From an uncultured Actinomycetota bacterium (GTDB lineage: Bacteria; Actinomycetota; Thermoleophilia; RBG-16-64-13): a stretch of DNA of 64,000 nt. Shown here one piece after another: positions 17,626-51,074 of the stretch; the stretch's first letter is position 1, and every line of letters begins with the position of its first letter. A program made the translations under genes and the position numbers. The DNA is taken from the NCBI GenBank assembly GCA_963790415.1, contig CAWBOK010000008.1, positions 7,125 through 71,124 on the forward strand, given 5' to 3'. The notes under the pieces are model-generated. The model saw only the letters and a list, made by a program, of their open reading frames with translations, did not search any database and was not told the DNA's origin.

Positions 17626-18749
17626 GTGGGCTCCCCTTCCCAGAAGCGATCGATGGCTTGGTCGAGGATCTCGTAGAGCCGGCCGTCGTCGTCGGCTTGG
17701 GTGCATCCGGGCAACCTGTTCCTGTCCAACCACCGAGACGGGAGCGCCGATGCTCCGTGGAGTGCGCCGACAGTCGCTCCCACCACCGCGGCCACCGTGT
17801 CGTTGTCGTAGGCATCGTTGACGGCTCTGACGATCGCCTCTTCCGGCGACGCGGCGTGGAGCGCCAGGGTGGCCAGCGCGGTCGGCACGGTCTCGAGGAG
17901 ATAGGCTCCCGAGTGCCATCTGTCGCTCACCTGGCGGACGGTCCATCCGTCCACCAAGGCGGGAGTCAATCTCTGCGAGAGAAAGTCGCACAGGCTCCCA
18001 CGGAAGTCGTCGGTGGGGACGCGCGGCTCGTACTCCACGCCGGTCTCCAGGGGTCCCGCGTAGCGGAGGAAGGTCTCCAGCCACCATCCGCCCGGGGGCG
18101 CCTTGGGAGCCCGCCATGCCAGGCACTCGAAGAAGAGCCCGACGAACCCGACACTGGAGACCACGGCCATCTCGTCGGCGTGGGTGAGGGCCGTTGCGTC
18201 GATGACGTCTCGCCAGAGAGCCGTGCTCGGGTCGTGCAGATGCGGGAAGCAGATCGGCGCGATCCGCATGAGGGCACCGTTGCCCGCACTCGGTTGACCC
18301 AACTCCCACCACACTATCGGCTCCTCGCCGCGGACCTGCTGTCCGTAGGCGCGCAGGAACCGCAGCACCGTTCTTCCCATACCGCACAGGGGCCGGGAGG
18401 CGAACGTGGCGGCGAGGTCGTCTAGGTCGAGGGCGCCGCCGCCGGTCTTGCCCGGCCGCAGCAGCGACTCCAGCGTCCACGCGGCCATCTGGGTGTCGTC
18501 GGATGGCAGCCCCACGCGCCTGTTGGCGGCGTGGCGGTTCGGCAGATAGTCCCGTATCTCGCCGTGCGCGAGACGACGGTCGTCGGGAATCTGTCCCTCG
18601 GTGGTGTTGCCCAGGGCGTCTCCCACCGCCAGCCCGAGGATCATGCCCCGCAATCGGTCGCCGGTAACAGTGTCCCGCGGAGGCGGCGGCGGCAGTGGGG
18701 GCGCCACGGCCGGCCAGTGGGAGAAGTGGTCCGGGCGGACCTCGGTCAT
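17622..18749 (-). CDS. ADP-ribosylglycohydrolase family protein
   Basis: [48 protein letters not shown]. Confidence 0.92.
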
Positions 18750-18767
18750 GGTATGCCTACTTCCGAC

Positions 18768-19196
18768 CTACCGCCCGGAGATGTAGTTCTCCAGTTGGTC
18801 GATCCGATACTCTTTCTCGTCCAGGGTGGCCTTGACCACGTCGCGCACCGAGATGACTCCGATCAGCGCTCCCCCATCCAGCACGGGAAGGTGGCGGAAG
18901 TGTTTCTGCATCATCAATGCCATGCACTGCTCGATGCTGTGCTCCGGGGTGACGGCGACGACGTCCACGATCATGACATCGCTGACCGGTGTGTCCAAGG
19001 CGACCTCGGCCTGCGCGACTTTGCGGGCGTAGTCCCGCTCCGACACCACGCCGACCAGGGCACCGCCATCGACCACCATCACGGCGCCCACGTCGGTCTC
19101 CGCCATGAGCCGCAGCGCGTCGAGCACGGATTGGTGCGATGCGATGGTGGATGGATTCTTGTGCTTCTCTTCAAGGATCTGCTTGACGGTCTTCAT
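18768..19196 (-). CDS. CBS-domain protein
   Basis: GVVSERDYARK and FRHLPV...GVISVRDVVK tandem CBS domains. Confidence 0.9.
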   Translation of the reverse strand: MKTVKQILEEKHKNPSTIASHQSVLDALRLMAETDVGAVMVVDGGALVGVVSERDYARKVAQAEVALDTPVSDVMIVDVVAVTPEHSIEQCMALMMQKHFRHLPVLDGGALIGVISVRDVVKATLDEKEYRIDQLENYISGR

Positions 19197-31648: not shown

Positions 31649-31704
31649 CCGCTGTGGCGACTTCGCGACGCGATCCGCCTGGGGGCGATGACGCCAGGGA
31701 GTCC

Positions 31705-34700
31705 ATGAACGTGCTGTCCGATTTCTCCGTACCTGTGCGGACCTGGTTCGCCGACACGTTCGGCGACTCCACACCCCCGCAGGCCCTGGGATGGCCGCCC
31801 ATCCAGCGGGGCGAGCACACATTGATCCTCGCGCCCACAGGGTCGGGCAAGACCCTGACGGCGTTCCTGTGGGGTATCGACGACCTCTTCCGCGAGTTAA
31901 CGGGCACGGCAGCGTCGGATGTCGCCATCGCCGCGTCCGGTGCCCCGGTGGCCCCGCCGGATGCCCCAGTTCCCGCGCCCGGCGCGAAAGCGCCTGGGGT
32001 TCCTCCCTCCGCGGCGAAGTCCTCGGTGGTCGCCCCGCCCGGCGTCCGCCTGGTCTATATCTCACCACTCAAAGCCTTGAACAACGACATCCAGCGAAAT
32101 CTGCGCATCCCCCTTGCCGGCGTGCGGGCTGCCGCCGCGGCGGCAGGACTCGTGTGGCCGGAGATACGCGTCGCCGTCCGCTCCGGCGACACGCCGCAAC
32201 GTGAGCGCCGAGCGCTGCTGACGCGACCACCGCACATCCTCATCACCACGCCCGAGTCTCTCTATCTGTTGCTGACGAGTCCTCGGGCACGGGAGATCTT
32301 CGCGCCGGTGCGCACGGTGATCGTCGACGAGATCCACACGCTGGCGGGGAACAAGCGGGGGGTCCACTTGTCGGTGAGCCTCGAGCGGCTGCAGAACCTG
32401 GTTGCGAGACCGATCCAGCGGATCGGGCTGTCGGCGACCATCCGTCCGTTGGAGGAAGTGGCCCGGTTCCTGGGGGGAGCGGAGTGGGCGTCGGGCGTCG
32501 ACGGCAACGCCGACACTGGTGACGGCGCGGTCCCCCCCGGCGAGGGTACCGGCGACGGCCCGCGTCGCGGCGGCCTCGTGGCACGTCCGGTCACCATCGT
32601 CGACGCGGGCCACCAGAAACCGCTCGACCTGCGGGTGGAGACCCTCACCGAAGACTACCGTGGACTGCCCGGGGGCTCGGTCTGGCCTGTGGTGATCCCG
32701 CGGGTGCTCGACCTGATCCGGCAGCACCGCACCACCCTGGTCTTCACCAACAACCGTCGGCTGGCCGAGCGCACGGCCGACCGGTTGAACGAGCAGGCCG
32801 CGGCTGAATCCCGGGGAGAGGCCTCGGGGCTCATCGTTGATGGCGTCGTCAAAGGCGTGGGTTTCACAGCGGCCGGCACGGGGGTGACCCGGGGCGAGTT
32901 GGCCGCCGCCGCCGGGGCCTTGACTGCCGGCGGGCCGCTCGCCCTGCCCCCCTTCCGCGCCCACCACGGGAGCATGGCCCGCGACGCGCGCCTGGAGATG
33001 GAACGCGATCTCAAGGCCGGCACGACCCGAGCCTTGGTGGGCACGTCGTCGCTGGAGCTGGGCATCGACATCGGAACGGTCGACCTCGTGGTGCAGCTGC
33101 AATCCCCGTCCTCGGTGGCGCAGGGCCTGCAGCGCGTGGGCCGCTCGGGCCATCTGGTCGGCCAGACCAGCAAGGGCCGCATCTTCCCCACCCATCGGGA
33201 GGATCTGGTGCAGGCGGCCGTCGTGGCGCGTGGGATGCTCGCGGGTGACGTGGAGGCCGTCGTGACTCCCCTCAACCCGCTCGACGTGCTGGCCCAGCAG
33301 GTCGTGGCGGCGGTGGCCGTGGAAGATTGGCGGGTGGACGATCTCTTCCGCCTCGTGCGCCGGGCCTACGCGTATCGCGACCTGACGCCGCGTGCGTTCC
33401 GAGCGGTGCTCGACATGGTCTCGGGCCGGTTCCCCAGCTCGGCCCACCGGGAGTTGCGCCCGCGACTGGCGTGGGACCGGGTGAACGATCGGTTGACCGC
33501 CTTGCCCGGTTCGCGCCTACTGGCGCTGACGAACGGGGGCACCATCCCCGACAGGGGCCTGTTCGGCGCCTACCTACCCGACGGAAAGACCCGCATCGGC
33601 GAACTCGACGAGGAGTTCGTGTTCGAGAGCCGGGCGGGCGACACGTTCATCCTGGGCTCCCAGGTCTGGCGCATCCTCGAGATCACCGACGACCGCGTGC
33701 TGGTGGGGGAAGCCCCGGGAGCCCTGCCCCGCATGCCGTTCTGGCACGGCGATCTGCCCTGGCGGCCCCACGAGCTGGGGAAGCGGGTGGGGGAGTTCCG
33801 GCGGACTTTGGCCGAGCGGCTGGAGCGGATGGCGTCGGAACTGTCTGCCGCGCGCGAAGCCGGCGACGGGTCGCCCGATCCCGAGGCGGGTGTCGACGTA
33901 CCTGTCGCCGGCGACACGCCGCCCGTGCAGGCAGGCGACCCATGCCCGCCGACCGTTCGGCCGACCAGTCTCAGCCTGCTGCTCGACGAGGAGTGGGACC
34001 ATCCCCGGTTACGGGAAGAGCTGTCGTGGCTCGCCCGCACGTGCGCCCTCGACGGGCCGTCCGGCAGGCAGATCCTCCGCCACATGGCGACGCAACTCGA
34101 CCGGGGCGGGGAGGTGGCCACCGACCGCACCGTCGTGGTGGAGGCGTTCGACGACGCCATCGGCGATCCGCGCATGGTGGTGCACTCCGTCTTCGGCGGC
34201 CGGGTGAACGGCGCGTGGGGGATGGTCCTGGCGGGAGCCCTGCGCGAACGGACCGGCGTGGAGGTGGAGATGCAGGCCGGCGACGACGGCATCCTCATGC
34301 GCTTCCCCGACTCCGACGCCGAATTCCCGCTCGACCTGATCGCGGCTATCGGGCCGGCGGAGGCACGGCGCCGTCTGCTGGCCGAGTTGCCCGATTCCGC
34401 GGTGTTTGGGGCTCAGTTCCGCATGAACGCCGCCCGGGCCCTGCTGCTTCCCGGCCTGCGGGGCGGAAAGCGCACGCCATTTTGGCTGCAGCGGCTGCGC
34501 GCCCGCGATCTGCTGCAGGGTGGTTCGGGGCTACCCCGACTTTCCGCTCCTGGCGGAGACCTACCGCGACTGCCTGGAAGACGTGATGGACGTTCCCGCT
34601 CTGGAAGACGTGCTGGCAGCCGTCGAGAGGGGCGAGATCCGAGTGGTGACGGTGGAGTCGCTGGTGCCGTCGCCGGTGGCCCAGAGCCTGTTGCGGAAGT

Positions 34701-36919
34701 TCGCGGACGTCCACCTCTACGACGCCGACACTCCCAAGGCGGAGCGCAACCTGCAGGCGATGGCCGTCAACCCCGAGCTGCTGCAGGACCTGTTGCGCGA
34801 CGTGCGCCTGGACGAGGTACTGAAACCTGAGGCTCTGGTGGAGGTGGAAGCGCGGTTGCAGCGCACCGCCCCGGATGGACGGGCCCGCACGGTGGAGGAA
34901 CTCGCGCTGTTGCTGGAGGAGCTGGGTGATCTCTCCACGGCCGAGGTGGTCGCCCGATGCGTCGTCGCTCCCGGTGCATGGTTGGCGGAACTCGAGGCAC
35001 AGGGGCGGATCGCCAGGATCGAGATACCAACGTCGTTGGGGATGGAGGAACGCTGGGTGTGGGGCGAGTGGAGGGAGGACTACCGGCAGGCTCTGGGCGT
35101 CGGCGCCGCGCCGGGCGCCGTGGGCCACACCCTGGCCGACCACGACGCACCCCTTGCCCGCGACGCGATGCGACGCATCCTCGAGCGGCACCTGGCGCGT
35201 TCGGGGCCGGTGACCGTGGAGCAACTCGGTCGGCGTTACGGATTCCCCGCCGAAGCGCTTCAGGATGAGCTTCACGAGATGGTCGGAACGCGCCGACTGG
35301 CCGAAGGCCGGTTCTCGCCGAAGACGGAGACTGCTCCCCCCGCCGGCGACGCCACGCCGGCCCCCGTGGCGCCGGTCGAGCCGCCCTACACTGAGTATGT
35401 CGACGTCCACGTTCTCGAGCAGCTCCACCGCCACACGCTGGGCGCGTTGCGCCGCGAAGTGCGGTCGGTCGATCTCGCCACTTACGCGGACTTCCTCGTG
35501 GATTGGCAGCGTCTGTCGGCGGATAGGCGCTTGGACGGCGAGGGAGGCCTGCGCCAGGTCCTCGCGCAGCTGCGGTCCGCGCCGGTCGTGGGAGCCGTGT
35601 GGGACAGGGACGTGCTGCCCCTCCGGCTGTGGGACTTCGACCCCGCCCTTCTCGAGTCGCTCTGTCGGAGTGGCGACCTGGTGTGGATCGTCTCCGGCGA
35701 GAAAGACCCTCGCCGGGCTCGGGTGCGGTTCCTCTTCCGTGGCGAGGGGGCGGCGTTCCTGGGGGCCGGGGCGGGCGAGGATTCCGGCCTGACCCCACCG
35801 GCTGTGGCGGTCCACGACCTGCTGCGCACGGAGGGCGCGCTGTTCACCGCCGATCTTCGCGGCGGGCTCGCACTCGATTCGGACGCCCTGGAATCCGCCC
35901 TCGTGGAACTCGTGATGGCCGGCCAGGTGACCAACGACAGCCTTGGTGTACTGCGGCGCCTCGCGGACTGGGCTCCGGTTGCGCCCCGGACGAGGCGCGG
36001 GGCCGCGTCCAGCCTGGAGGCCGATCTCGCCCGGCGCCTCGAAGGGCGCGGGCTCGGCGCCGGCACCACCCGGCGGCTCAGCGGCCGCTTCTCCGGGTCG
36101 TCGTCGTATCCAGGTGTGCGCCCGCACGGCCTGCAACGGCCGGCGCGCGGCGTCCAGCGCGCGGCTTCTCGGCGCGTGCGCGACCGACTGGCCCTGCGCG
36201 GCCCTGCTCCCGGCGGGGCCGGGCCGGCCGATCTACCCACCGACGGCCGCTGGAGTCTGGTCGACCGTCTGGGGATCATGGGTCCTCCGCTACCGCCGGA
36301 CGAGCGCTCGCTGCGACAGGCGCGTCAGCTGTTGTTACGGCATGGAGTGGTCACTCGAGCCTGTCTCGACCGCGAGGAGGGACCGTGGGAGTGGACCGCC
36401 ATCTACCGTCAGCTGCTGCGCATGGAGCTGCGGGCCGAAGTCCGGCGGGGCTACTTCGTACGGGGGCTTCCCGGGGTGCAGTTCGCGCTTCCGGAGGCGG
36501 TCGAACGCCTGCGGGCGGCGAGCGGCTCGGGCGGGGGAGAGGCAAGGCGCGCCGACGGCGAGGGGTCCGTCGTGGTCATGAACGCCTGCGACCCGGCGAA
36601 TGTCTGGGGGTCGGCTTCGCTGGGAATCGATGCCGCACAGTTTGTGCGGGTGCCTACTACCTGGCTGGTCCAGCACCGTGGCCTTCCCGTGCTCGTCGCC
36701 GAGGACACCGCCGCCCGCATCAGAGTCGCGCCGGGCGCCGATGTGGGCCTTGTTCGCGACGCCCTCGCGGCGCTCGTGGAGCATCTGAGTGGGTTTACGA
36801 ACCGGATGACCGTCGAGAGCTGGGACGGCGTCCGCGTGTTGGACAGCAGCGGCGCGGCACTGCTCGATTCGCTGGGGTTCTACCCGGACCACCCCTGCAT
36901 GACCCGGGAGCGTGGGTGA
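31705..36919 (+). CDS. lhr: Lhr-family DEAD/DEAH helicase, long form, frameshift near 34520
   Basis: APTGSGKT, ISPLKAL, TTPESL, DEIH, HHGS, SSLELGIDIG, QRVGRSGH. C-terminal half has RRGYFVRGLPGVQFA. Confidence 0.9.
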
Positions 36920-38057: not shown

Positions 38058-38282
38058 ACCGACCCTCCCCCTTCGCCGTTGTCGACCCGTTCAGGGTTCA
38101 CATTCTGACTCTGATTCTATGACGGAAGCGTTCGGAAGGTAAATGCGCCCGCGGTCCGCCAAAGCGCCCCCAGCCGCTTCATGGTGACCGTCTCGGCCGG
38201 GACCATCCGGCCCCGTATCGCATCTGCCGCCCCGGCGACGTACTATGGTGGAGCTGGCGATGACACACGCGAGGAGGCATCG

Positions 38283-38753
38283 ATGGGGGCGGACACCTGG
38301 CAGGACGCGAAAGACAAGGCGATGGCCGGTTTTCTCGACAACGGGCCGGCGCATCTCAACTGTGCGCAGGCGGCGGTCGCTTTCGCGGCGTTCGGCTTGG
38401 GTCTCGATCCTCGGTTGGTGCTCGCGGCCCGCTACATGGGCGGCGGGTCGGTGGGAATGGGTCATCTGTGCGGCGCCCTCTCAGGAGCGATCCTGGCGCC
38501 CGGGCTGCGCGATTTCTTCGCTGGAGCGGAGTGGCCCGACCGGGCCGCGCCCGACAAACCGGCTCTGCAGCAGCTCATCCGGGATTTCGAGGCCGAGTTC
38601 GGCACGGCCACCTGCCTCGGGCTCACCGGCCACGACATCTCTTCCAAAGAGGGCTACCGAGTTTTCAAGCATGACCCGATCGCCAAGCGGTGCGCCGACT
38701 ACGTCGCCTGGGTCTGCGATCGCCTGGAACCCATCCTGAGAGGGGTCGACTGA
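38283..38753 (+). CDS. C-GCAxxG-C-C family redox protein
   Basis: NCAQA, LCGALSG, ATCLGLTG and RCADYV cysteine pattern. RBS GAGGAGG. Confidence 0.85.
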   Translation: MGADTWQDAKDKAMAGFLDNGPAHLNCAQAAVAFAAFGLGLDPRLVLAARYMGGGSVGMGHLCGALSGAILAPGLRDFFAGAEWPDRAAPDKPALQQLIRDFEAEFGTATCLGLTGHDISSKEGYRVFKHDPIAKRCADYVAWVCDRLEPILRGVD

Positions 38754-38760
38754 CCGTTCC

Positions 38761-40080
38761 ATGGAACGAAAGCGCTACACGATCCACCTCTCGGGTCCGT
38801 TGTCCGGCTGCAATCCGCGGCAGCGGCGTCTCTGGCGCGCCGAGTTCAAGAGACTCTGCCCCGACATGCTGACCATCGACCCCAGCGAGTGGGGCGACGA
38901 GTGGGACTTCTCCCGCGACCTGCGGGCCGTCGCCGCGTGTGATGTGGTGGTGGCCAACATGTGGAAGGAGTCCATCGGCACTACGATCGAGATCATGCAG
39001 GCCCGAGCGTGGGGCAGACCGGTGGTGGTCATCGACCCCAACCATCTCGATCACGCCATCCTCCGCGGTCTGGTCGCCCCCGAGAAGCCTGTCCACTCCG
39101 TGAAAGAAGCGGCCGCACGGGTGCGCGTCTTGGTGCGGGAGTTGGGCGGTTTCAGCGTCATGAAGAAGGACGGTTCGTCGGAATCCTTCGACCGCGACAA
39201 GTTGATGCGTGGTCTCAAGCTGGCGTGTATCGAAGCCGGCGTCGACGACCTGGAGTTTCCCAACCAGGTCCTCGGGCCGGTCGTGGCTTCTCTCCGCAAG
39301 GAGGCCGCGAGCAGGGTGGTCAGCACCGGCGATATCAAGAATGTTGTGTTCGCCCAGATCGACGGCCTGGCGGTGGAGACCGAGGGCCGCAAAGCCGTCG
39401 GGGACTTTGCCGTCCGCGTGCGGCGGGCGTGGGAGAAGCAGGAGAGCCGCAAGCAGGGGGACGCCTACCTCGATGTGCTCCACGACGACAACGACGACCT
39501 CCGTGCCCGGGTGAGAGACCTGGGGATCCTGGTAGCTCAGCTGCACCAGGAGATCGCCGAACGCGATGCCCGACTCACCGAACTCGATCGCCGCCCGGAA
39601 GCCCCTGTCCCGCCGCCTCCGACGACTCTGTTCGAAGCGTTGCGTCGCGTCGAGCGCGACTACGCCGACGCGATCGCCGTCCATCCGCGGGCACTGAAGA
39701 GCGCGAAGGATTGCCCCTTTCAAGATGTGGACAGAGCCAACACTGCGCTTCGGCTCTTGGCACGATATGCACGCGAACGTCTGGAAGCCACCTCCTCTCC
39801 CGGCTGTCGTCCACCGGGAGCGAAAGAGTGGTTCAGGCAGCGCAGGGAGGAGGCCCCCTGGCTCGGCTATGCACCGCACGAGAGCAAGACCAGCATGAGT
39901 ATGTGGGCCGTCGAGCGCACGGTCGACTTCGCGGGGGAGACCCTGCTCATCGAGCAGCATCTTCGCATCGGAAAGGGTAGCCCCTCCGACCTGCTCCGCG
40001 TCCACTTCGCCATCCACCAGGCGACAGGGCAGGTGGTCATCGGCCACTGCGGGCGGCATCTGACGAACACCAAGTCCTGA
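38761..40080 (+). CDS. Multidomain protein: NDT/nucleotide N-glycosidase-like + ATP cone + coiled coil + putative RelE-like C-terminal domain
   Basis: IHLSGP...RDLRAVAACDVVVA...SIGTTIE..A...GRPVVV; VMKKDGSSESFDRDKL; heptad segment; HLRIG...LLRVHF...VVIGHCGRHL. Confidence 0.7.
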   Translation: MERKRYTIHLSGPLSGCNPRQRRLWRAEFKRLCPDMLTIDPSEWGDEWDFSRDLRAVAACDVVVANMWKESIGTTIEIMQARAWGRPVVVIDPNHLDHAILRGLVAPEKPVHSVKEAAARVRVLVRELGGFSVMKKDGSSESFDRDKLMRGLKLACIEAGVDDLEFPNQVLGPVVASLRKEAASRVVSTGDIKNVVFAQIDGLAVETEGRKAVGDFAVRVRRAWEKQESRKQGDAYLDVLHDDNDDLRARVRDLGILVAQLHQEIAERDARLTELDRRPEAPVPPPPTTLFEALRRVERDYADAIAVHPRALKSAKDCPFQDVDRANTALRLLARYARERLEATSSPGCRPPGAKEWFRQRREEAPWLGYAPHESKTSMSMWAVERTVDFAGETLLIEQHLRIGKGSPSDLLRVHFAIHQATGQVVIGHCGRHLTNTKS

Positions 40081-40251: not shown

Positions 40252-40419
40252 GGCAGACTCCTCGGCGCTCCGATGGTATTGGCCAGCGACAACATGATAC
40301 CGCGGGCGTGAGAGCAGGATCGTGCGCTTCTTCCGGTAGCCATAGATGCCCACCGGCTTGACAGCCACCGCCTCGGCGTGATACTTCTTCGCGGCACAAC
40401 CGAGCAACGCCGCTTGGTG

Positions 40420-40645
40420 CCGCCGGTCCGGTGATGCAGGAGCCTCTCGAGGCGCTGCGACCGCCGCCGGTGGAGAATAGGGAATCGGGTGAGAATCCCG
40501 AGCGGTCCCGCCGCTGTGATCGGGGAGTGAACTCGCATGAGGCCACTGTCCCACCACCATCGGCCCGTAGTGGGCAGTTGGCAAGGGGGATGGGAAGGCG
40601 CGGGGGAGCGGTGATCCGAGAGTCAGCAGACCTGCCCGGCGGCTG
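40420..40645 (+). ncRNA. Cobalamin (AdoCbl-class) riboswitch
   Basis: Conserved elements in order: GGTG...AATAGGGAATCGGGTGAGAATCCCGAGCGGTCCCGCCGCTGTGA...GCCACTG...GGGAAGGC...GAGTCAGCAGACCTGCC (B12 box). Confidence 0.93.
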
Positions 40646-40689
40646 GTAGGCCTCCCGTGTGAAGGGGGCCCTGCTGAGAGACGATGGCA

Positions 40690-40727
40690 AAGTCTCCGGC
40701 CTACTTTAGGCTGGGGGCTTTTCTTTT
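40690..40727 (+). terminator. Riboswitch expression-platform intrinsic terminator
   Basis: AAGTCTCCGGCCTA-CTT-TAGGCTGGGGGCTT stem (with G-U pairs) followed by TTCTTTT, 25 bp before the first gene. Confidence 0.8.
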
Positions 40728-40752
40728 GCCCCCTCAACCCGAAAGGGGGCAG

Positions 40753-41646
40753 ATGTGGCGACACAGAGACGCAGTGCAGGCTGAATCCCGACTTGAACGC
40801 GCGGTTCCTGTGGCGGCGCGGGAACGCACACGGACACGCGCCCGGGGCCGGAGGCGCGCCGGAGGGCATGCGACTCCGGCTCTCGTGGCGATCGCGGTAC
40901 TTGTCGCGTTGACCGTGCTGGTGGAGCTCGTGGTCCAGGCGGCGCACGTCGCCCCGTTCGTGTTCCCTCCGCCGTCCATGGTGCTGCGCGAGTTGGCCGA
41001 CGGACCTGGGCTGTTCGCCCGGCACGCCATGTACACGCTGTACGAAGCGGGAGCCGGGCTTGTGGTCGCGGCGGCGGCGGCGCTGATCTTCGCCGCCGCC
41101 GCTCTTCACTCCCGCTTTCTCGACCGGGTGCTGACGCCATTCGTGGTGGTGTCTCAGACCATCCCGGTGATCGCGCTGGCGCCTCTGCTGGTTCTCTGGA
41201 TCGGCTACGGAGCTCTGCCGCGGGTGATCGTCTGCGCCCTCATCGCCTTCTTCCCGATGGCGGTGATGACTCTGCAGGGGTTCCGCTCGACCGATCCGCA
41301 GTTGCTCACACTACTCCGCTCCGTGAATGCCTCGCCATGGGATGTCTTTTGGCGGGTGCGCGTGCCGGGAGCGGCGCCCTTCTTGGCCGCCGCGTTCCGC
41401 ACCGGGGTCACGTTGAGCCTGGTCGGAGCCGTGGTGGCCGAGTGGACCGGCACCGACCGGGGTCTCGGCTACCTGGTGCTGAGCGCGAACTCGCGCATGG
41501 CCACGGCACAGGCGTTCGCCGCCGTTCTCGTGATCACCCTGCTCGGCCTCGTCGCGTACGGTGGCGCCGTGCTGCTGGAACGGAAGATCTGCTGGTGGAA
41601 CTCCGCGGCCCCCGTCGGCCGCCCTTACGACAAGAAAGAAGGATGA
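40753..41646 (+). CDS. NitT/TauC/SsuC (ThiX-like) ABC permease
   Basis: FPPPS, QTIPVIALAPLL, FFP, EAA-loop region, AVVAEW...GLGYL. Confidence 0.9.
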   Translation: MWRHRDAVQAESRLERAVPVAARERTRTRARGRRRAGGHATPALVAIAVLVALTVLVELVVQAAHVAPFVFPPPSMVLRELADGPGLFARHAMYTLYEAGAGLVVAAAAALIFAAAALHSRFLDRVLTPFVVVSQTIPVIALAPLLVLWIGYGALPRVIVCALIAFFPMAVMTLQGFRSTDPQLLTLLRSVNASPWDVFWRVRVPGAAPFLAAAFRTGVTLSLVGAVVAEWTGTDRGLGYLVLSANSRMATAQAFAAVLVITLLGLVAYGGAVLLERKICWWNSAAPVGRPYDKKEG

Positions 41647-42750
41647 ACATGATGCTCCGCAAGAAACACACGCATGCCGCCCTATCGGCGACTCTGTTGG
41701 CGGTCTTCCTCCTGCTGTGGGCGACGGCCTGCGGCACCTCCGCCACGACGACGACCGCACCGGCGCCATCTTCCACGGTGGCTTCGGACACCGCGACCAC
41801 CGCGGGTTCCAGCTCAGCCGCCAAAGTGGGGCCGCCGGAGGTGGCCAAGGTCGACCTGATCATGGATTGGGTGCCCTGGGTGCTCGATATCCCGATCGAC
41901 GTGGCGCAGGAGAAGGGTTTCTACACCGACGCCGGCCTGGAAGTGACCCAGACTCTGCCGGCGGGGCCCACCGACGTGGTCAAGTTCGTCTCCACCGGCA
42001 AGAGCCAGTTCGGCCTGTACTATGCCCCGGACATGCTCATGGGTGTGGCCGAGGGCGCGTCGCTCGTGTCCGTCGCGGCCCTCATGGGCCACGCGCCGGT
42101 GGGGCTGGCCGTGGCGCCTGGTGTTGACGTCACGGAGCCAAAGGACTTGGTGGGCAAGACCGTGGCCGTGCCGCTGATCCCTTCGGTGCGGGCTTCATAC
42201 GACACCATGCTCAAGGTTGGAGGCGTCGATCCGGAGTCGGTGACCCTCGTCGATCCCGGATACACCTTGGTTGCTCCGCTGCTCGCGGGGACCTACCACG
42301 CGGTGGCGTTCACTGAGTTCGGTGAGCTTGTGGAAGCGGAAGCAATCGCGGGCGAGAAGTTGACCTATCTCGACTTCCGCGACTGGGGCACCCCCGACTA
42401 TGCGTTCATGAATGTGATCACCGCCTCCGACTTCGCTCAGAAGAATCCGAACACCGTGCGCGTGTTCGTGGAGGCGACCATGGCCGGTCTCGCCTACGCG
42501 GCGGCGAACCCCGAGGAGGCTGCGGACATCTACGTGGCCCGCCATCCGGAGCTGAAGAAGGATCTCCTTTTGGCGCAGTGGCGCGCGGCCCTGCCCTCGA
42601 TGGCCACGGCCTACGGTCGACAAACCGGCCGGGTGGCAGGACGTGGAGGCGTGGACGGCCCTGAACACATGGATGGTGGAGGCGGGTCTGCTGAAGCAGC
42701 CCGTCGAACTAGGCGGATCGGTGAGCAACGACTATCTGGCGGCGCCGTGA
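41643..42750 (+). CDS. NMT1/THI5 (ThiY-like) ABC substrate-binding lipoprotein, frameshift near 42615
   Basis: Lipobox ATAC, MDWVPW, VAQEKGFYTDAGLEV, NPNTVRVFVEATMAGLAYAAANPEEAA. True C-terminus GWQDVEAW...VSNDYL in the next frame. Confidence 0.85.
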
Positions 42751-42810
42751 TGGGAGCGGCGGCTTCGTGCGCCCGCCCGGCGCCGGGCGGGCCGGAGAGG
42801 GTGCGGCGGC

Positions 42811-43697
42811 GTGGCCCAGGAGGGCCACGCCGCCGCCTCGGTGACGGTCCGCGGTCTGCGGGCGGGTTATGACGGTCGACAGGGGCACGTGTCCGTGCTC
42901 GCCGACCTGGAACTCGCCCTCGCGCCGGGCGAGTGTCTCGTGGTGGTGGGGGAGAGCGGCTGTGGAAAGAGTACGCTCCTGCACCTGTTGGCCGGACTCA
43001 TGGCGCCCGAAGCGGGTGAGGTACAGGTCGACGGACGTGCGGTGGCGGCAGCCGACTTCGCCGGAGACGGGCTGCCCGGGTGCTCATCCGGGCATGCCGC
43101 CTACATGTTCCAGCGCGATCTGCTGCTGCCGTGGAAATCGGTGCTGGCGAACACGGTGTTCGCCGCCGAGGTGGCCCGCGGAGCGCGGACACGGCGGGCG
43201 TGGTCGGCGTTCTCGCCCGCGGGGTGTCGGTCGCCCAGAGCGGCTGGAGCTGGAGGAGCGGGCACGGACGATCCTGGGCGAGTTCGGGCTGTCGGCGAGC
43301 CCTCGATGCCCTTCCTCGCGAACTCTCCGGGGGGATGCGGCAGCGGGTGGCGCTGGCCAGAACGCTGGTCTTGGGTCGTGGCCTCGTCCTGCTAGACGAG
43401 CCGTTCGGCAGCCTGGATGCCTTCACCCGCGCGGAATTGCAGGGCTGGCTACTCGACGTGATGGAGGCCCATCCGGCCACCTGGGTGTTGGTCACGCACG
43501 ACGTGCGTGAGGCGGTGCTATTGGGTGACCGCGTCGCGGTGCTGGCGGGCCGCCCGGCGCGTATGGAGGGTTGGGTGCCGGTGCCCCTCGACCGAGCCGC
43601 CCGGCGCGGACTCGCGGCGCCCGAGGCCGACGGACACGTCATGACCCCGTTCACGAGGCGTGTGCACGGTCTGCTGGCGCAGGGGAGGATGTCGTGA
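42811..43697 (+). CDS. NitT/TauB/SsuB (ThiZ-like) ABC ATPase, frameshifted; start may be 42750
   Basis: GESGCGKST, YMFQRDLLLPW, ELSGGMRQRVALAR, LLDEPFGSLD, VTHD. Confidence 0.88.
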
Positions 43698-44935
43698 GCG
43701 TCACGCCGGGTGTACCTGTGATGTCGGGGTCCGCCGCTCCGGGAGCCGTGCTTTCCGCGACCCGGGAGCGGATCCGTCCGGTGGACCAGGGGTCAGCGGC
43801 CCGTGCGGCCGCCCGGGCCGCCGAACTGGCCATCCCCGCGGGCAGCCTGGGCCGGATGCTCGACTTGGGCGTGCTCTTGGCGGCCATCCAGGGGACGCTG
43901 CGACCCTCGTTCCCGCGGAAGGCCATCGTGACCGCGGCCGGCGATCACGGCGTGACGCGTCGCGGGGTCAGTGCCTTCCCGGCCGAAGTCACCCCGCAGA
44001 TGGTGGCCAACTTCGTACGCGGGCAGGCGGCCGTCAGTGCCCTCGCCGGTGTCGCCGGTGCCCGGGTTATGGTCGTAGACGCCGGCGTGGCCGCCGATCT
44101 GCGTGCGCTTCTGGGCGATCGAGTCTCGGCCGACTTCTCAACGGTCTTCGACAACGGCGGCGTGCTCGATCGCAAGGTCCGGTTCGGCACGGCAGACCTC
44201 AGCAGGGGACCGGCCATGAGCCGGGAAGAGGCGGTGCGGTCCCTGGAGGCGGGCATCGAAGTGGCGCTCGGGCTGCGGGGCGCCGGCATCGATCTGGTAG
44301 GCACCGGCGACATGGGCATCGGCAACACGACGCCGTCGAGCGCTCTCGCCTGTGTCTTCACGGGGCGGACCCCGGCCGACATGACCGGGCGCGGAACCGG
44401 CATTGACGACGCGAGTCTCGAGCGCAAGCGCAGGGTCGTAGGGGAAGGCCTCTCCGTCAACTCCCCCGACCCGTCCGATCCGGTGGGTGTTCTGGCGGCC
44501 GTGGGCGGCCTGGAGATCGGGGTCATCGCCGGAGTGATACTCGGCGGGGCTTTGGCTGGGATCCCCATCGTGGTCGATGGCTTCATCTCCACCGCGGGCG
44601 CGCTGGTGGCGTGTGCGCTTGCCCCTCACACCCGAGGCTACCTGATAGCCGGACATCGCTCGCTGGAGCCGGGGCATCGACTTATGCTCGACCATCTGGG
44701 TCTCACTCCACTGCTCGATCTCGACTTGCGTCTGGGAGAGGGAACGGGAGCGGCACTGGCCATGCCGTTGATAGACGGAGCTGCCGCCTTACTGAGAGAG
44801 ATGGCCACCTTCGCCGAAGCCGGCGTGGCGGGGGCGAACCCTGGAGTCACGGCGACGCGCCCCGTCGTGGCCGCGACGCGCCACATGGCGGCGGCCGGCG
44901 CCGTCCAGGCGCACCAGAGAGCGGAGGCGCGATGA
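43694..44935 (+). CDS. cobT: Nicotinate-nucleotide:dimethylbenzimidazole phosphoribosyltransferase
   Basis: GSLGR, AGDHGV...SAFPAEVTPQM, GDMGIGNTTPS, GRGTG, GGLEI, DGFI, LRLGEGTGA. Confidence 0.95.
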   Translation: MSVTPGVPVMSGSAAPGAVLSATRERIRPVDQGSAARAAARAAELAIPAGSLGRMLDLGVLLAAIQGTLRPSFPRKAIVTAAGDHGVTRRGVSAFPAEVTPQMVANFVRGQAAVSALAGVAGARVMVVDAGVAADLRALLGDRVSADFSTVFDNGGVLDRKVRFGTADLSRGPAMSREEAVRSLEAGIEVALGLRGAGIDLVGTGDMGIGNTTPSSALACVFTGRTPADMTGRGTGIDDASLERKRRVVGEGLSVNSPDPSDPVGVLAAVGGLEIGVIAGVILGGALAGIPIVVDGFISTAGALVACALAPHTRGYLIAGHRSLEPGHRLMLDHLGLTPLLDLDLRLGEGTGAALAMPLIDGAAALLREMATFAEAGVAGANPGVTATRPVVAATRHMAAAGAVQAHQRAEAR

Positions 44936-46609
44936 GCATCTGGTCGGAACAGGTCATGGTTCGCGGGCCGCAGGATCTGGAGGACGTGGCCACGGCCGGT
45001 TGGCTCTCGGGTGCCCTCTTCGCGGCCTTGGATCTGGACCTCTTCGAGACCATCGGCCTCGCGGACGTCTCCCTGGACATCGTGGCGGAGCGGACGAGTG
45101 CCGACCTCGACGCCCTCCGCAGGCTGGTGGAGACGCTGGCGGCGCTCGGCCTGCTCTCCCTCCACGAGGATCGGGTGGCCTGCAGCACCGTGGCACGGCG
45201 ACACCTGCTCGCGCAGAGCGAGGGGTATCTGGGCCATTCACTCCGCTACCGGCAACGACTGGCCGCACACTGGCCTCGCTTGGCGGAAGCCGTGCGCCGG
45301 GGCGGCTCGCCTCTCGCGGCCGCAGCTGACGACGACGCCGACCCTCCCCACGATGCCGCTGCCGAAGCGCAGGCCGTTGACACCGACGATACCGACGACG
45401 ACTATCAGGCCCGAGTACGTGCCTACCTCCTCGCCATGGACGACGTGGCCCGGTACAAAGCCCGTCTCATCGCCGACCGGGTACGACTGGATCGACTGCC
45501 GAATCCCCGCTCCGGTGGGGAGCGCTTCGTGCTCGACGTGGCGGGTGGCGCCGGCGCCGTGGCCGCAGAGTTCGTACGGCGATATCCCGACGTGGATGCG
45601 GTGGTCGTCGACATGCCGGAAGTGGTGGAGGAGGCCCGCGAGGTGTGGGCCGAGCGCGGCGATGACCCTTCGGGCGCGGCAGGTTCTCGCTTGACCTTCA
45701 CGGGCTTGGATATCTTGAGCGAACCCCTGCCCGCTCCCCCCGAGGGTGCCGCGGGGTGGGACGTGATCATCCTGTCGAACATCGTGCACGCGTTCGGTGA
45801 GTCGGAGTCATCTGCGCTTCTCGGGGTGGCCGCAGCCGCGCTCTCCGACGACGGTCTCCTGCTCGTTCACGACTTCTGGACCGACGGGCCGGGCCGCGGC
45901 CCGGCCAAGAGTGCCCTGTTCGACCTGCATATGTTGATCAACACGTATCAGGGGCGCACGTACCCCTGGGCGTGGGCCCGAGAACGTTTGGCCGCGGCCG
46001 GGCTCTCGGTTCTGGCTCCCGTCCTGCTGGGAGAAGGGCTGCACGCCGAAGACACCGCGCTGGTGGTAGGCGGCCGCTCGCCCGCGGCTTTGGCCGCCTT
46101 CGACGCCGGCCCCCTCGATCGGGTGCGCGCGACGGCACTGGATCTGGGGTTCGTCCGCACCACCCCGGTCGAGCCATCGCAGGTCTTGACGGCGGCCTGG
46201 GTGCGCGAGAAATGCCGCTTTGGCTGCGCCGGGTACGACGCGGGCGCGCAGTGCCCTCCCCGTTCGCCGGCGCCGGACGATACGCGGAAGCTGCTCGCCG
46301 GATACGGCCGCGCGCTGCTGGTTCAGGGAGAACCGCCTACGGCCGACTTCCACGAACGGATGCTCGTCCTTGGAGCGGGCGGCCTTTCTCGCCGGTTTCC
46401 CGCAGGCGCTCGTGTTCGTGGCGGGTCCCTGCCGGCTCTGTCCGGCATGCGAGCCCGACGCCTGCCGGCGGCCCGCGGACGCGCGACCGTCCATGGAGGC
46501 GGCCGGCATGGACGTGTACGGCACCGCGGAAGCGGCCGGATGGCCTCTGGAGCCGGTGCCCGACCGGGAGTCGCCGGTGACGTACCTCGGCCTCCTACTG
46601 GTGGACTGA
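44932..46609 (+). CDS. bzaC: BzaC-like SAM-dependent methyltransferase with dimerisation domain and C-terminal DUF2284, frameshift near 46370
   Basis: Class I MTase LDVAGGAG and ILSNIVH. DUF2284 motifs WVREKCRFGC..Y...CPP, GPCRLCPAC, ARPSMEAAGMDVY. Directly follows cobT, as in anaerobic bza operons. Confidence 0.78.
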
Positions 46610-48037
46610 TGGGTATGCGCATACTCTTGATACAGGCTCCGTCGGTGGAGGGACCGCGCGTCGGAGATCGTCGCGCCGCTCGGTCTGGGGGTGGTGGCCG
46701 CCGCCGCGCGCGGCGGCGGCCACGACGTGGAGCTGCTCGATCTCAACCTGGAGACCGACCCGTTCCCTGTGCTCGCCGCCACCTTGGCCCGCGTCGACCC
46801 TCGGCTTGTCGGCGTCGGCCTGCGGAACATCGATCCTCTGGCCAATCGGCGGCATTCGTTCCTGCCGCAATTCGCGGCGGTCCTCGAGGTGGTGCACAGC
46901 GCTCTCCCCGACGCACCCGTCGTGGTGGGAGGTGCCGGCTTCTCGATGTTCCCCCTCGAGATCATGCGCCGCTATCCTCGTCTGGATGCGGGCGTGCTGC
47001 TCGAAGGGGAGGAGACGTTCCCGGATCTCGTGTCGCGTGGGCGACAGGGTCCCGGTAGCGCCGGGTCGAACGGGGCGTCTGCGGCCGGCGGCCGCCTGGC
47101 CCCCGCCGCGGGCACGCCCGGCACCATCGTCCGCACGGGCCCCGCGGCGGGTGATCTGGTGGCCGGGTCGCCGCGACCCCGGCTCGCGCCGGCGGAACTC
47201 GACAAGGTGCGTCCCTGGCTGCCGGAGATGGCGGCCACCTATCAGCACACCAGCAGCTACGCGCCCGCGGCCGGGGTCGAGACCAAGCGGGGTTGCCCGC
47301 TCGGCTGCTCGTATTGCGTCTATCCGGCGCTGCAGGGGCGACAGGTCCGTTTCCGCAGTCCGGCGACCATCGTGGCCGAGGTGGAGTTGCTGCACCGGGA
47401 GGCCGGCGTCGAGTGGGTCCACTTCACCGACCCGGTTCTGAACGATCCTCCCGACCATTTTCGAGAGGTGTGCAGGCGGTTGATCGAGGCGGGAGTCCCG
47501 GTGCGCTGGACCGGCTTCTTCCGCGAGAACGCCCTCGGTCGCGAGGACGCCGCGCTGGCGGTGGGAGCCGGCTGCGCCGCCTTCCAGTTCTCCGGCGACG
47601 GCACCTGTGACGCCACCCTGGCCGGTCTGCGCAAAGGCCTCACCCGCGACGACATCCTGCGGTCCGCCGGCTACGTGGCGGCCACCGAAGCGCTCGCCGT
47701 CTATCACTTCATGGTGAACGTTCCCGGCACCGACGCGGCTGTCGCCCGGGGGGCACACGAACTCGTCGACCGGCTTCACGACCTGCACGAGCCGCGGGGC
47801 AACCTGGGCGCCGTGGTCTTCAACAACCTGCGCGTCTACCCCCGGACTCCGCTGGCCCGGCAACTCCTGGACGAAGGCGCCCTCCGACCGGAAGACGACC
47901 TGCTGTATCCCACCTATTACGACCCAGAGCCGTTCAACCGACTGCGCTACGAACTCGATGAGCACCATCAGCTCCGTTCCTGCGCACGACGCGCCCAAAC
48001 CGCCGCGCCCGCGGCTCACAGAGAGGTCGAACCTTGA
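46609..48037 (+). CDS. bzaD: BzaD-like B12-binding radical SAM enzyme, frameshift near 46665
   Basis: MRILLIQ...PLGL, GLRNID, VVGGAGFSMFP, TKRGCPLGCSYC. Position after bzaC. Confidence 0.72.
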
Positions 48038-49641
48038 CGCCTTCGCACGCGCGACCCACCACGGAACACACGCGGACCCCAGCGGGTGGACTCCGCATCA
48101 CGTTGATCGAGCATCCCCGGCAGCCGAGCTGGGTGCACATGAACGACATCGCCAACACGCCGCTCTCGAGCAGCCTGATGACCGGCTACACGGCCGGTTC
48201 GCTGGAAGCGGCGGGTCACGTGGTGGCGATCGTGGAAGGAAACCTGGCCGGGATGACCATCGCGCAGGTGGTCGCGGCCGCGGCCTCGACGAGGCCCCAG
48301 CTGGTCGGGCTGCACCTCGTGTACGACTGGTCCGACGGTGGGCAGATCGCCGTCCTGCTGCGCGACCTGCAGGAGGCCTGCGGTCCCACACCCGTCTTCC
48401 TGTACGGTTTCTATCCCACCTTTGCCTGGCCGGAGCTCCTCGAGCGCCACTCCGAGGTGACGGCCGTCATCATCGGCGAATCGGAGCTGACGGTAGTGGA
48501 GGTGGCGGCCGCGGCGGCCGCTGGAGCGCCGGGAACGTCGCCCGGCCTGGCCGGGATACCCGGGTTGGCGATCCGCGGAACGGACGGTGCTCCCCGGCTC
48601 ACCGCTTCCCGACCTCCCATCGAGGACCTCGACTCCCTGCCCTATCCGCGACGCACGCCCGAGTTGATGCGCATGCGCGAGGTCAATATCTCCGGCAGTC
48701 GGGGTTGCTACGGGTCGTGCACGTTCTGCACCATCAACCCCTTCTACGGGGGCCGTTCGCTCTGGCGGCCGCGTTCCCCCGAGAGCGTGATCGCCGAGAT
48801 GGCGGCCGTGCTGGAGGAGCATCCGGACACGAGCCGTTTCTACTTCGTCGACCCCAACTTCTTCGGCCCTGCCGGTCGAGGGCGCGTGCGGGCGCTCACC
48901 CTGGCTCGGATGATCCGGGAGCGTTTCCACATCCGCTTCGGCCTCGAGGGCAGAGTGAACGACATCGACGAAGAACTGGTCGAGAACTTGGTGGCCGCCG
49001 GGTTCGACGAACTCCTTATCGGCCTGGAGAGCGGCTCCGACGCCACCCTGCGCCGCCTGAACAAGCACACGACCGTGGAGCAGAACCGCCGGGCGCTTCG
49101 CATCCTGCGCGCCCATGGCGTGGAGCCCAACGTCGGCTTCATCATGTTCGAGCCCGACAGCTCGCTGGACGACCTGCGGGTGAACCTTACCTTCCTCCAC
49201 GAGGAACGGTTGTTGGACCGCCTGGCGGTGACGGCCAACGTCCTCTACCATCAGCAGATCCTTCTGCGGCCCACTCCCGCCTACCGGGCGGCGCTGGCCG
49301 CGGGACGGCTCGACGTCTCGCCGCACAACCCCTACGAAGGCACCATGCCCTATCTCCACCCCGAGGTGGCTTTCCTGGCGGAGACCATGGCCGAGGTGTG
49401 CCGCCACGTGTTCTCAGGGCTACCGTTGGAAGTCTGGGTGGGCGACAGCTCCGGGGGTGCCGGCGGCGACCATACCGGGGCGGTCGATCGGCTGGCGGGA
49501 TTGAACCGTTCCCTGGTGGGCCTGTTCGAGCGCCTTCTGGATGGACTCGCCGCCGGGAGACTCAGGCCATCAGCCGAGTTGGCGGCGGAGGTGGTGGGCG
49601 AGGCACGGGCCTGGATCGAGACTATCCGCCGCGCCGCGTAG
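48034..49641 (+). CDS. bzaE: BzaE-like B12-binding radical SAM enzyme
   Basis: NDIANTPLSSSLMTGY, GFYPT, SRGCYGSCTFC, FVDPNF, GLESG, GFIMFEP. Overlaps the bzaD stop. Confidence 0.72.
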   Translation: MTPSHARPTTEHTRTPAGGLRITLIEHPRQPSWVHMNDIANTPLSSSLMTGYTAGSLEAAGHVVAIVEGNLAGMTIAQVVAAAASTRPQLVGLHLVYDWSDGGQIAVLLRDLQEACGPTPVFLYGFYPTFAWPELLERHSEVTAVIIGESELTVVEVAAAAAAGAPGTSPGLAGIPGLAIRGTDGAPRLTASRPPIEDLDSLPYPRRTPELMRMREVNISGSRGCYGSCTFCTINPFYGGRSLWRPRSPESVIAEMAAVLEEHPDTSRFYFVDPNFFGPAGRGRVRALTLARMIRERFHIRFGLEGRVNDIDEELVENLVAAGFDELLIGLESGSDATLRRLNKHTTVEQNRRALRILRAHGVEPNVGFIMFEPDSSLDDLRVNLTFLHEERLLDRLAVTANVLYHQQILLRPTPAYRAALAAGRLDVSPHNPYEGTMPYLHPEVAFLAETMAEVCRHVFSGLPLEVWVGDSSGGAGGDHTGAVDRLAGLNRSLVGLFERLLDGLAAGRLRPSAELAAEVVGEARAWIETIRRAA

Positions 49642-49877: not shown

Positions 49878-51074
49878 ATGCGATCGATGAAACGGAACGT
49901 GGCGCTGCTTGCGACGAGCCAGGCGCTTCTGATGTCCGGCCAAGTCGTGCTGCTGGCTACGGCCGGCCTCGTCGGGGCGGTCTTGGCGCCTGTCCCGTCT
50001 CTGACCACGCTGCCGTCAGCTCTGTCGTTCGTCGCGGGCACGGCGATCACGATCCCGGCGTCGCTTTTCATGCGCCGGATGGGTCGGCGTGTCGGGTTCG
50101 TCACGGGGGCCCTCATCGGCGTGGTTGCTGGGTTGGTCGCCGCCGTGGCCATCGTGCAGGGCAGCTTCGCTCTGTTCTGTCTAGGGACGTTTCTTGCCGG
50201 CTTGTATGGCGGGTTCGGCAGTTACTATCGCTTCGCCGCCGCCGATGCCGCCGACGATGCGTTCCGCAGTCGTGCCATCTCCTACGTCATGGCCGGTGGC
50301 GTGGTCGCGGCTTTCGCCGGTTCGAACCTGGCCACCTGGTCTCGGGAGATGCTTCCCGATGCCGTCTTCGCAGGGAGTTTCCTGGCCTTCGCGGGCCTCG
50401 CGGTGGCGTCGGCGCTGGTTCTCGCGTTCGTCGATCTGCCGCGGCCGGAGACGGTCAAACGGGGGGAGACGGGTCGGCCCCTGACGTCTATCGCCCGACA
50501 GCCCGACTACGGCGTAGCCGTGCTCGTGGGCATGTTGGCCTACGGCGTCATGGTGTTCCTCATGACGGCCACTCCTCTCGCCATGAAGGCGCACCTGTTC
50601 GCCTTTGGCAGCGTTGCCTTCGTCATCCAATGGCACGTGCTGGGGATGTTCGCGCCGTCCTTTGGTACCGGCACGCTGATAGGACGCATGGGCACCCTGC
50701 CTGTGATGGGTGTGGGCGGCCTGTTGATGGTGGGGACGATCATGTGCAATCTCATGGGCGTCGGTTTGTGGTACTTCTGGGCCGCGCTTCTGATGCTGGG
50801 AGTGGGCTGGAACTTCCTGTATGTCGGCGCCACCACACTCCTCACGGGTACCTACCGGCCCGAGGAGAAGGCAAAGGCTCAGGGGCTGAACGAACTCGTG
50901 GTCTTTGCCGGTGTCGCCTGTGCGTCGTTGTCGGCTGGCGCCTTGGTCCGGGCGGTCGGCTGGCGACAGGTGAACCTGGCCGCGGTGCCCTTCATTCTGG
51001 CGGCGCTTGCGGCCGTCGCTTGGCTGTGGCTCCGGGACCGCCGGTCGGTCCTCGCCGTGGCGCCGCCGGCCTGA
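49878..51074 (+). CDS. MFS transporter (RfnT-like subfamily)
   Basis: YYRFAAAD...RAISYVMAGG, VIQWHVLGMFAPSF, LGVGWNFLYVGATTLL, EKAKAQG. Confidence 0.82.
   Translation: MRSMKRNVALLATSQALLMSGQVVLLATAGLVGAVLAPVPSLTTLPSALSFVAGTAITIPASLFMRRMGRRVGFVTGALIGVVAGLVAAVAIVQGSFALFCLGTFLAGLYGGFGSYYRFAAADAADDAFRSRAISYVMAGGVVAAFAGSNLATWSREMLPDAVFAGSFLAFAGLAVASALVLAFVDLPRPETVKRGETGRPLTSIARQPDYGVAVLVGMLAYGVMVFLMTATPLAMKAHLFAFGSVAFVIQWHVLGMFAPSFGTGTLIGRMGTLPVMGVGGLLMVGTIMCNLMGVGLWYFWAALLMLGVGWNFLYVGATTLLTGTYRPEEKAKAQGLNELVVFAGVACASLSAGALVRAVGWRQVNLAAVPFILAALAAVAWLWLRDRRSVLAVAPPA

Follow-up and report, generated by a model that had tools for sequence, protein, structure and literature searches.

The 64-kb stretch of DNA analyzed here (the window; G000:C8:7125-71124, ~68% G+C) carries a cobalamin (B12) riboswitch and a terminator followed by seven plus-strand genes, which encode an ATP-binding cassette (ABC) permease, a substrate-binding lipoprotein, an ATPase, CobT, a methyltransferase fused to DUF2284 and two B12-binding radical S-adenosylmethionine (SAM) enzymes (Table 1). 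Labels beginning with G denote genomes (G000, a 3.64 Mb assembly of 89% completeness, is that of the window), those beginning with L denote loci in relatives, and X1 and X2 are metagenome runs. Genes overlap at four junctions (ATGA at 41643-41646 and at 44932-44935, TGATG at 46607-46611, and TTGA at 48034-48037), which shows that the coupling of genes in this operon is real. A preliminary description, made from the letters of the window, had proposed the same layout of riboswitch, terminator and seven coupled genes, and the Rfam, Pfam and NCBIfam matches and the four overlaps bear it out. Metagenome runs containing 8-25% of the sampled words of the window are mostly labelled as sediment.

Table 1. 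Features of the riboswitch-controlled operon, in window coordinates
Feature	Position	Strand	Support
Candidate sigma-70-like promoter (TTGACA-16-GATACT)	40358..40385	+	Consensus scan, 1 match vs 0.1 expected; pattern match only
Cobalamin riboswitch aptamer (RF00174)	40440..40653	+	Rfam, 98.8 bits vs gathering score of 31.5; model 1-189, full
Expression platform	40689..40752	+	Terminator-like hairpin, then hairpin sequestering the ribosome-binding site
ABC permease (BPD_transp_1)	40753..41646	+	Pfam, 112 bits; 72-80% identity to relatives
Deletion scar	40767..40893	+	blastn, 128 nt vs 1432 nt including the bzaF-like gene in L020
Substrate-binding lipoprotein, NMT1/ThiY-like, of the B12-riboswitch clade	41643..42750	+	Pfam NMT1, 169 bits; lipobox
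ABC ATPase (ABC_tran)	42811..43697	+	Pfam, domain over two frames; one frame in relatives
cobT (nicotinate mononucleotide:base phosphoribosyltransferase; DBI_PRT)	43721..44935	+	TIGR03160, 414.5 bits, above cut-off of 319.3
bzaC-like O-methyltransferase (Dimerisation and Methyltransf_2) fused to DUF2284	44932..46609	+	Pfam
bzaD-like gene (B12-binding and Radical_SAM)	46609..48037	+	Best NCBIfam model TIGR04385
bzaE-like B12-binding radical SAM gene	48034..49641	+	Pfam; no specific NCBIfam model

The aptamer is the sole Rfam match in the whole window, and the riboswitch region shares 84% identity with that of a same-genus relative (G002, locus L020). Within the expression platform, a terminator-like hairpin with a T-rich tail (40689-40721) precedes a second hairpin (~40728-40750) that pairs with the GGGGG ribosome-binding site directly before the permease start codon (ATG, 40753); the predicted fold has a minimum free energy of -74.7 kcal/mol and a modest z score (-2.1).

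By sequence and by fold, the lipoprotein belongs with the binding proteins of thiamine-precursor importers. A sequence search of the PDB returned ThiY (3IX1) as the best match (E 1.9e-41), then 4NMY and Thi5, with TauA at E 4.6e-8, and the AlphaFold (AF2) model, with a predicted local distance difference test score (pLDDT) of 91.4, had 4NMY (thiamin-bound), 3IX1 and Thi5 as its best fold matches. The model confirms a ThiY-like fold for the predicted protein, with pocket contacts lying beyond what a fold search addresses. An ESM Atlas search returned generic NMT1 binding-protein clusters only, and among 1.84 billion representatives we recovered one full-length cluster at the 50% level (636 bits) together with fragments, the next match scoring ≤207 bits.

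Orthologs of the binding protein (59-76% identity) were found in 7 of 40 sampled relatives, and 20 loci were located in a species-genome collection, giving 21 loci with the window. All 21 have a cobalamin riboswitch immediately ahead of the importer genes or, in loci that carry bzaF, immediately ahead of that gene (supported by Rfam for the window and 15 loci, and for the other 5 by an nhmmer profile built from eight of these riboswitches), and a thiamine pyrophosphate (TPP) riboswitch was found at none of them. A second cobalamin riboswitch precedes a neighboring cobU-cobT-cobS set in six of the eight loci scanned. Paralogs of ~30% identity at 13 loci in the same class follow a TPP riboswitch on the strand of the gene in 6 cases and a cobalamin riboswitch in none, and one genome (G008) holds both kinds of importer, cobalamin-linked and TPP-linked. 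A quick maximum-likelihood tree was built from 82 rows, without the cut or split rows L045, L046 and L047. In it, the 18 riboswitch-linked rows form one clade (Shimodaira-Hasegawa-like approximate likelihood ratio test [SH-aLRT] 100, stem 0.73), together with one library row of unknown context, whereas the TPP-linked rows are scattered over the tree. The B12 set and the TPP-linked set are told apart by ten alignment columns, among them three motif positions that are invariant in the TPP-linked set and changed in the B12 set (N to W79, H to D82, G to P84). At the N and H of the N-terminal motif DW.PN..H, W79 and D82 are present in 18/18 B12-clade rows and N and H in 6/6 TPP-linked rows; the motif histidine is shared by ThiY and Thi5, and the W79 and D82 positions may touch the ligand.

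The gene order that is usual in Thermoleophilia relatives points to a bza-type operon from which one gene has been lost in the window. Four loci (L030, L031, L032 and L044) carry, in order, the riboswitch, a bzaF-like homolog of ThiC, the importer, cobT, bzaC, bzaD and bzaE, and a fifth (L033) begins in the same way, with a bzaF-like gene and then the importer, before its contig ends. The bzaCDE-type order without bzaF occurs in the window and in L034. Alignment by blastn matches window positions 40375-40766 to L020 positions 6995-7389 (84%; riboswitch and first bzaF codons), and the window from 40894 onward to L020 from 8821 onward. Since L020 aligns on both sides, with 1432 nt between the aligned blocks against 128 nt in the window, the lineage of the window has lost bzaF through a deletion of ~1.3 kb. 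The form without bzaF does not result from an error in this assembly, because a 3.2 kb short-read contig from run X2 is colinear with the window over 40420-42801, at ~93% identity and with mostly third-position differences. The preliminary description had placed the importer in the operon position of bzaF. This stands for the window itself, where bzaF is absent, but not for L030, L031, L032, L044 and L033, where a bzaF-like gene lies directly upstream of the importer, and the replacement account fits only this lineage, as a secondary loss.

The wider distribution of the importer was surveyed in 61 genomes of the family, which are metagenome-assembled genomes (MAGs) of kin, so that the counts are descriptive only. 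The importer was present in 11 genomes, any ThiC-family gene in 10, an operon-type ThiC-family gene (583-593 bits) in 6 and a bzaD-like gene in 7. An anti-correlation between importer and bzaF, as would follow from replacement, was not found; the association is positive, with the importer present in five of the six genomes that carry the operon-type bzaF-like gene. It is also present in six of the seven bzaD-like genomes, and none of these seven lacks both the importer and bzaF. Within one genus the pattern is a mosaic, with the importer alone in G000, bzaF-cobT alone in G001 and both in G002. Downstream of the importer, cobT lies within 10 kb at 14/21 loci (3 of the others are cut by a contig end and 4 have none), and the importer also occurs without any bza gene, beside cobU-cobT-cobS(-cobC-cbiB) at 9/21 loci or alone at 4. 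One locus, L045, is cut inside the binding protein.

The ThiC homolog of the relatives is called bzaF-like from its regulation, clade and neighbors. NCBIfam scores it as ThiC (582 bits, cut-off 410), with BzaB at 534 bits below its cut-off of 700 and no BzaF model coming up. Among 15 ThiC homologs of the class, eight follow a cobalamin riboswitch, and these group as a single clade (SH-aLRT 100); one of the other seven follows a TPP riboswitch, and six had no riboswitch in the fetched flank.

Two further arrangements were observed among importer-bearing loci. In L037 (4996-7362), the transcription unit that follows the first cobalamin riboswitch includes, besides the importer, genes for a zinc alcohol dehydrogenase and for a Glycos_transf_3 enzyme (TrpD / nucleoside phosphorylase family); these two genes precede a second riboswitch and cobU-cobT-cobS-cobC. 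In L035, genes for CbiZ (175 bits; cobamide remodelling) and a BtuF-like binding protein (18147-18839 and 20311-20832) lie downstream of cobU-cobT-cobS-cbiB.

Downstream of the importer, the operon carries the only cobT of G000 (one PF02277 match genome-wide). For the bzaD-like gene, TIGR04385 (BzaD) gave 364.6 bits, against 222 for the next-best NCBIfam model. Over 90-97% of its length, the bzaE-like protein shares 44-50% identity with proteins from Moorella, Thermacetogenium and Desulfitobacteriaceae that carry generic names. Both the BzaC-like and BzaE-like proteins show the expected Pfam families and positions, with no curated model match and with generic source names among their homologs. 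The names BzaC, BzaD and BzaE are thus best taken as putative, from context and best-hit similarity. A fusion of DUF2284, a predicted metal-binding domain known in NCBIfam from ArsM fusions and MbdU, to the bzaC-like O-methyltransferase was seen in the window (44932-46609) and in L022 (7628-9337), and recurs in MAGs of Thermoleophilia, Deltaproteobacteria and Deferrisomatales.

The absence of ThiC-like genes noted at the locus in the preliminary description extends to the whole G000 assembly, in which the ThiC family PF01964, which includes bzaA, bzaB and bzaF, has 0 matches in 3.64 Mb (89% complete). A genome-wide search for BluB (TIGR02476) was also negative, the best match reaching 34.8 bits against a cut-off of 150. 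Genes for making the rest of the cofactor, by way of the anaerobic corrin pathway, appear to be present. As read by eye, another cobalamin riboswitch of G000 heads cobU, cobQ, cbiB, a CobD-like aminotransferase, CbiX/CbiC and CbiM; CbiD and CobS were also found, CobS being encoded outside the operon, and CbiZ was not found in G000. By its gene content, G000 would build the corrinoid and the nucleotide loop without a known route to benzimidazole, and it would need a base, because the corrin and loop genes are present while neither a bzaF-like gene nor a BluB above the cut-off was detected. Among 13 importer-bearing genomes searched for both the ThiC family and BluB, 8 have neither. Elsewhere in G000 (G000:C3:395338-400412), a weak cobalamin riboswitch match (31.6 bits) precedes an apparent corrinoid methyltransferase system, made up, by eye from translations, of a ferredoxin-like activator, a methyltransferase, a uroporphyrinogen decarboxylase (URO-D)-like protein and a B12-binding protein.

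For thiamine, the best match to ThiD (PF08543) in the 89% complete genome was 25.7 bits, below the cut-off of 27, and a ThiE/TenI-like match is present. Translations read by eye indicate that both TPP riboswitches of G000 control genes for thiamine pyrophosphokinase and for a thiamine ABC system of the ThiB type; the two units (G000:C1:674530-679524 and G000:C2:26428-28434) are near-duplicates, and both include the pyrophosphokinase and a ThiB-like binding protein. G000 appears to be an auxotroph for whole thiamine. Import of hydroxymethylpyrimidine (HMP) would serve nothing in this genome, because there is no ThiD over the cut-off, no ThiC, and whole-thiamine uptake is TPP-controlled.

Five single-base frameshift sites fall within the 9.2-kb operon, in the binding protein (~42612), the ATPase (~43187 and ~43297), the methyltransferase-DUF2284 gene (~46366) and the bzaD-like gene (~46655-46665). 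In related contigs at least 90% like the window, from up to three runs labelled as sediment metagenomes, the extra base is absent at 42612/42613, 43187, 43297 and 46366/46367 among the matches listed, which do not cover the site in the bzaD-like gene, and run X1 lacks one base at both ATPase sites. An intact 368-aa binding protein (P0001), 94% identical to that of the window, is on record, and in relatives in many contigs each operon gene lies in one frame; two few-contig, low-completeness MAGs (G007 and G009) show similar gene splits. An unrelated Lhr-type helicase on the plus strand (31180-36916) is also split across frames inside DEAD_assoc (profile 1-137 vs 137-191), which looks like a sign of general indel errors in the assembly. 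Third codon positions account for 26 of the 36 coding differences listed between the window and related contigs, a list that is part of a larger set (848 more); this bias is also counted as a sign of selection on the genes. Because of the related contigs without the extra base, the intact P0001, the one-frame relatives, the split helicase and the third-position bias, we read the five frameshifts as assembly errors.

On its flanks, the operon is preceded on the plus strand (38115-40077) by a C_GCAxxG_C_C redox protein and a 446-aa open reading frame with an ATP-cone domain, and followed after 237 nt by a 398-aa multi-helix membrane protein (49878-51074, +) that resembles the major facilitator superfamily (MFS) by eye. 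Neither the upstream genes nor the MFS-like gene is kept beside the operon in relatives.

We propose, with a probability of roughly 0.55, that the importer is a ThiXYZ paralog recruited to the B12 regulon, where it brings in a benzimidazole lower-ligand base that CobT activates and BzaC, BzaD and BzaE methylate. When B12 is scarce, the operon would be read through, and the importer would take in a free benzimidazole-type base from neighbors, most likely 5-hydroxybenzimidazole (5-OHBza) or a methylated relative. CobT would convert the base to its alpha-ribotide, on which the bzaC-like O-methyltransferase would act, and the two radical SAM enzymes would complete the path toward 5,6-dimethylbenzimidazole (DMB). 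CobS, encoded elsewhere, would then join the nucleotide to the self-made corrinoid. A preference of BzaC for the 5-OHBza ribotide, reported in the accessible part of PMC12931638, fits CobT acting first. The ancestral operon probably carried a bzaF-like gene, with import as a salvage route beside synthesis, and this lineage may have been left dependent on import by the deletion of bzaF. The binding protein would thus be a ThiY paralog moved from the TPP to the B12 regulon, in parallel to BzaF as a ThiC paralog under B12 control. More tentatively, the clade could be the first dedicated high-affinity importer of free benzimidazoles, arisen by duplication of ThiXYZ, and provide a route for lower-ligand cross-feeding and base remodelling that survives bzaF loss. 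Import of a lower-ligand base was already suggested in the preliminary description and is strengthened by the riboswitches (21/21 loci), the nearby cobT (14/21), the TPP-linked paralogs and the genome-wide absences; the substrate itself, like the activities of BzaC, BzaD and BzaE, is a prediction that we infer from this genomic context.

Several observations weigh against this proposal. The substrate is assigned from context, and no cob gene was found in the flank of the importer at 4/21 loci. One importer-bearing genome (G077) has BluB over the cut-off, and in 5 of the 11 family genomes with the importer bzaF is present too, so the one does not simply stand in for the other. Scores for TIGR04385 (about 364.6-369 bits; 368.6 for the intact G022 ortholog of the bzaD-like gene) fall short of the curated cut-off of 450, and BzaC and BzaE lack a model altogether, so that different chemistry could follow import. 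All the genomes are related MAGs, and the counts are therefore not independent. If the five breaks in the reading frames were real, this copy of the operon would be dead. Moreover, benzimidazoles are small, hydrophobic molecules that are commonly taken to cross into cells on their own, which leaves no obvious need for a dedicated pump.

Other substrates must be considered alongside a free benzimidazole. A lower ligand in an activated or different form (alpha-ribazole, a benzimidazole riboside, a purine or a phenolic base) is an unlikely but credible cargo: the B12-regulon context is equally compatible with it, the closest fold match (4NMY) holds a whole thiamin and suggests that the pocket can take larger ligands, the Glycos_transf_3 enzyme is co-transcribed with the importer in L037, and, in the accessible part of PMC7373994, NMT1-like genes are tied to purine metabolism through a xanthine riboswitch. 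However, CobT is a free-base enzyme whose gene adjoins the importer, and the position between bzaF and cobT favors a free base; purine import, in particular, would be unneeded under B12 control, as the cell makes purines. We consider it quite unlikely that the importer carries a B12 precursor unrelated to the lower base, for instance aminopropanol or its phosphate, or some small molecule with as yet no link to B12. More distant members of the family bind taurine, 2-aminoethylphosphonate and sulfonates, nine loci lie beside a whole nucleotide-loop set including cbiB, and four have no cob neighbor, but the protein is far closer to ThiY than to TauA (E values above), a threonine-phosphate decarboxylase was read by eye in the riboswitch-controlled cob cluster of G000, and in bza-type operons the importer sits between bzaF and cobT. 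Import of AIR-riboside (AIR, 5-aminoimidazole ribotide) to feed BzaF was rejected because the importer is retained where bzaF is absent (the window, G006, G008, G009 and G078-G081).

The resemblance to ThiY raises the question of an ordinary ThiXYZ importer for HMP, formylaminopyrimidine (FAMP) or thiamine that has a B12 riboswitch in front of it by chance, and the ThiC call made by NCBIfam for the neighboring gene of the relatives points the same way, as do the matches to 3IX1, thiamin-bound 4NMY and Thi5. We nevertheless regard such an importer as very improbable, given a cobalamin riboswitch at every locus and a TPP riboswitch at none, true TPP-linked paralogs in the same class and, for G008, in the same genome, and the replacement of the N and H that TPP-linked sequences share, along with the separate clade of the cobalamin-linked ThiC-like genes. 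Import of HMP or thiamine was set aside on the TPP-controlled thiamine uptake and lack of ThiD in G000, the TPP riboswitches of the paralogs and the motif changes. It is also improbable that the operon is a decaying remnant, useless after the loss of bzaF and broken by real pseudogene lesions. Five frameshifts in 9.2 kb and the deleted bzaF would suit such decay, but the extra base is absent at four of the five sites in related contigs (among the matches listed), the intact binding protein is on record, Lhr and the genes of G007 and G009 are similarly split, and the bzaF-less contig was recovered in an independent assembly with mostly third-position differences. A pseudogene was accordingly dropped as the leading explanation on the related contigs, P0001 and the split Lhr gene.

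Compared with known systems, the importer shares with ThiXYZ its three-component architecture (NMT1-fold binding protein, BPD permease and ABC ATPase), with ThiY (3IX1) its fold (template modelling score 0.87 on the target), and with thiamine loci the placement of a salvage importer next to the radical SAM enzyme that makes the same heterocycle, which is ThiC there and bzaF-like here. It differs in following a cobalamin rather than a TPP riboswitch, in forming a separate clade, in having W and D for the N and H of DW.PN..H, and in a host (G000) with neither ThiD nor ThiC. RibXY of Chloroflexi, another ThiXYZ homolog, was assigned a new substrate, riboflavin, from its flavin mononucleotide (FMN) riboswitch (PMC3766115, as far as accessible) and gives direct precedent for inferring a substrate from a riboswitch here; by description, RibXY is set apart by that riboswitch and substrate and by having no ATPase of its own. 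NMT1-like genes behind a xanthine riboswitch likewise turned out to be unrelated to thiamine, according to the accessible part of PMC7373994. The operon resembles bza operons in having cobT, a methyltransferase gene and two B12-radical SAM genes, in that order, behind a cobalamin riboswitch, with a bzaF-like gene first in relatives, and differs from them in the ABC importer between bzaF and cobT, the deletion of bzaF in the window, the DUF2284 fusion of the methyltransferase and the BzaD score under the curated cut-off.

CblT-CblS, an alpha-ribazole transporter and kinase, is also a route of lower-ligand salvage. CblT is not known to be a binding-protein ABC system and carries a riboside that needs a kinase, not CobT; by description and architecture, it differs from the importer of the window. 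The accessible portions of PMC6461909 and PMC8123684 name no lower-ligand transporter besides CblT. Our literature search, which left aside the supplements PMC3766115 Additional file 5 and PMC6461909 Table 8, returned no B12-riboswitch-linked ThiY-like importer and no ABC importer of free benzimidazoles, in agreement with the view of the preliminary description that none is known to have been characterized.

The cobamide that a microbe makes depends on the lower base available to it, and free benzimidazoles are present in the environment, where they are shared by cross-feeding. The feature described here is real and its family-level pattern is clear, and it yields a specific, testable prediction of the substrate. 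If the prediction is true, a B12-regulated binding protein for free bases would be an expressible handle on lower-ligand exchange. The importer could also account for genomes that have bzaC, bzaD and bzaE without bzaAB or bzaF; in the accessible part of Shelton et al. (PMC6461909), 96 genomes have bza genes and 88 have the first step. The clade would then add a second case in which one pathway took over both a synthase (ThiC to BzaF) and a salvage importer (ThiY to this clade) from another. It would also mean that anaerobic, corrin-building sediment bacteria scavenge 5-hydroxybenzimidazole or other benzimidazoles and finish them to DMB through CobT and BzaC, BzaD and BzaE.

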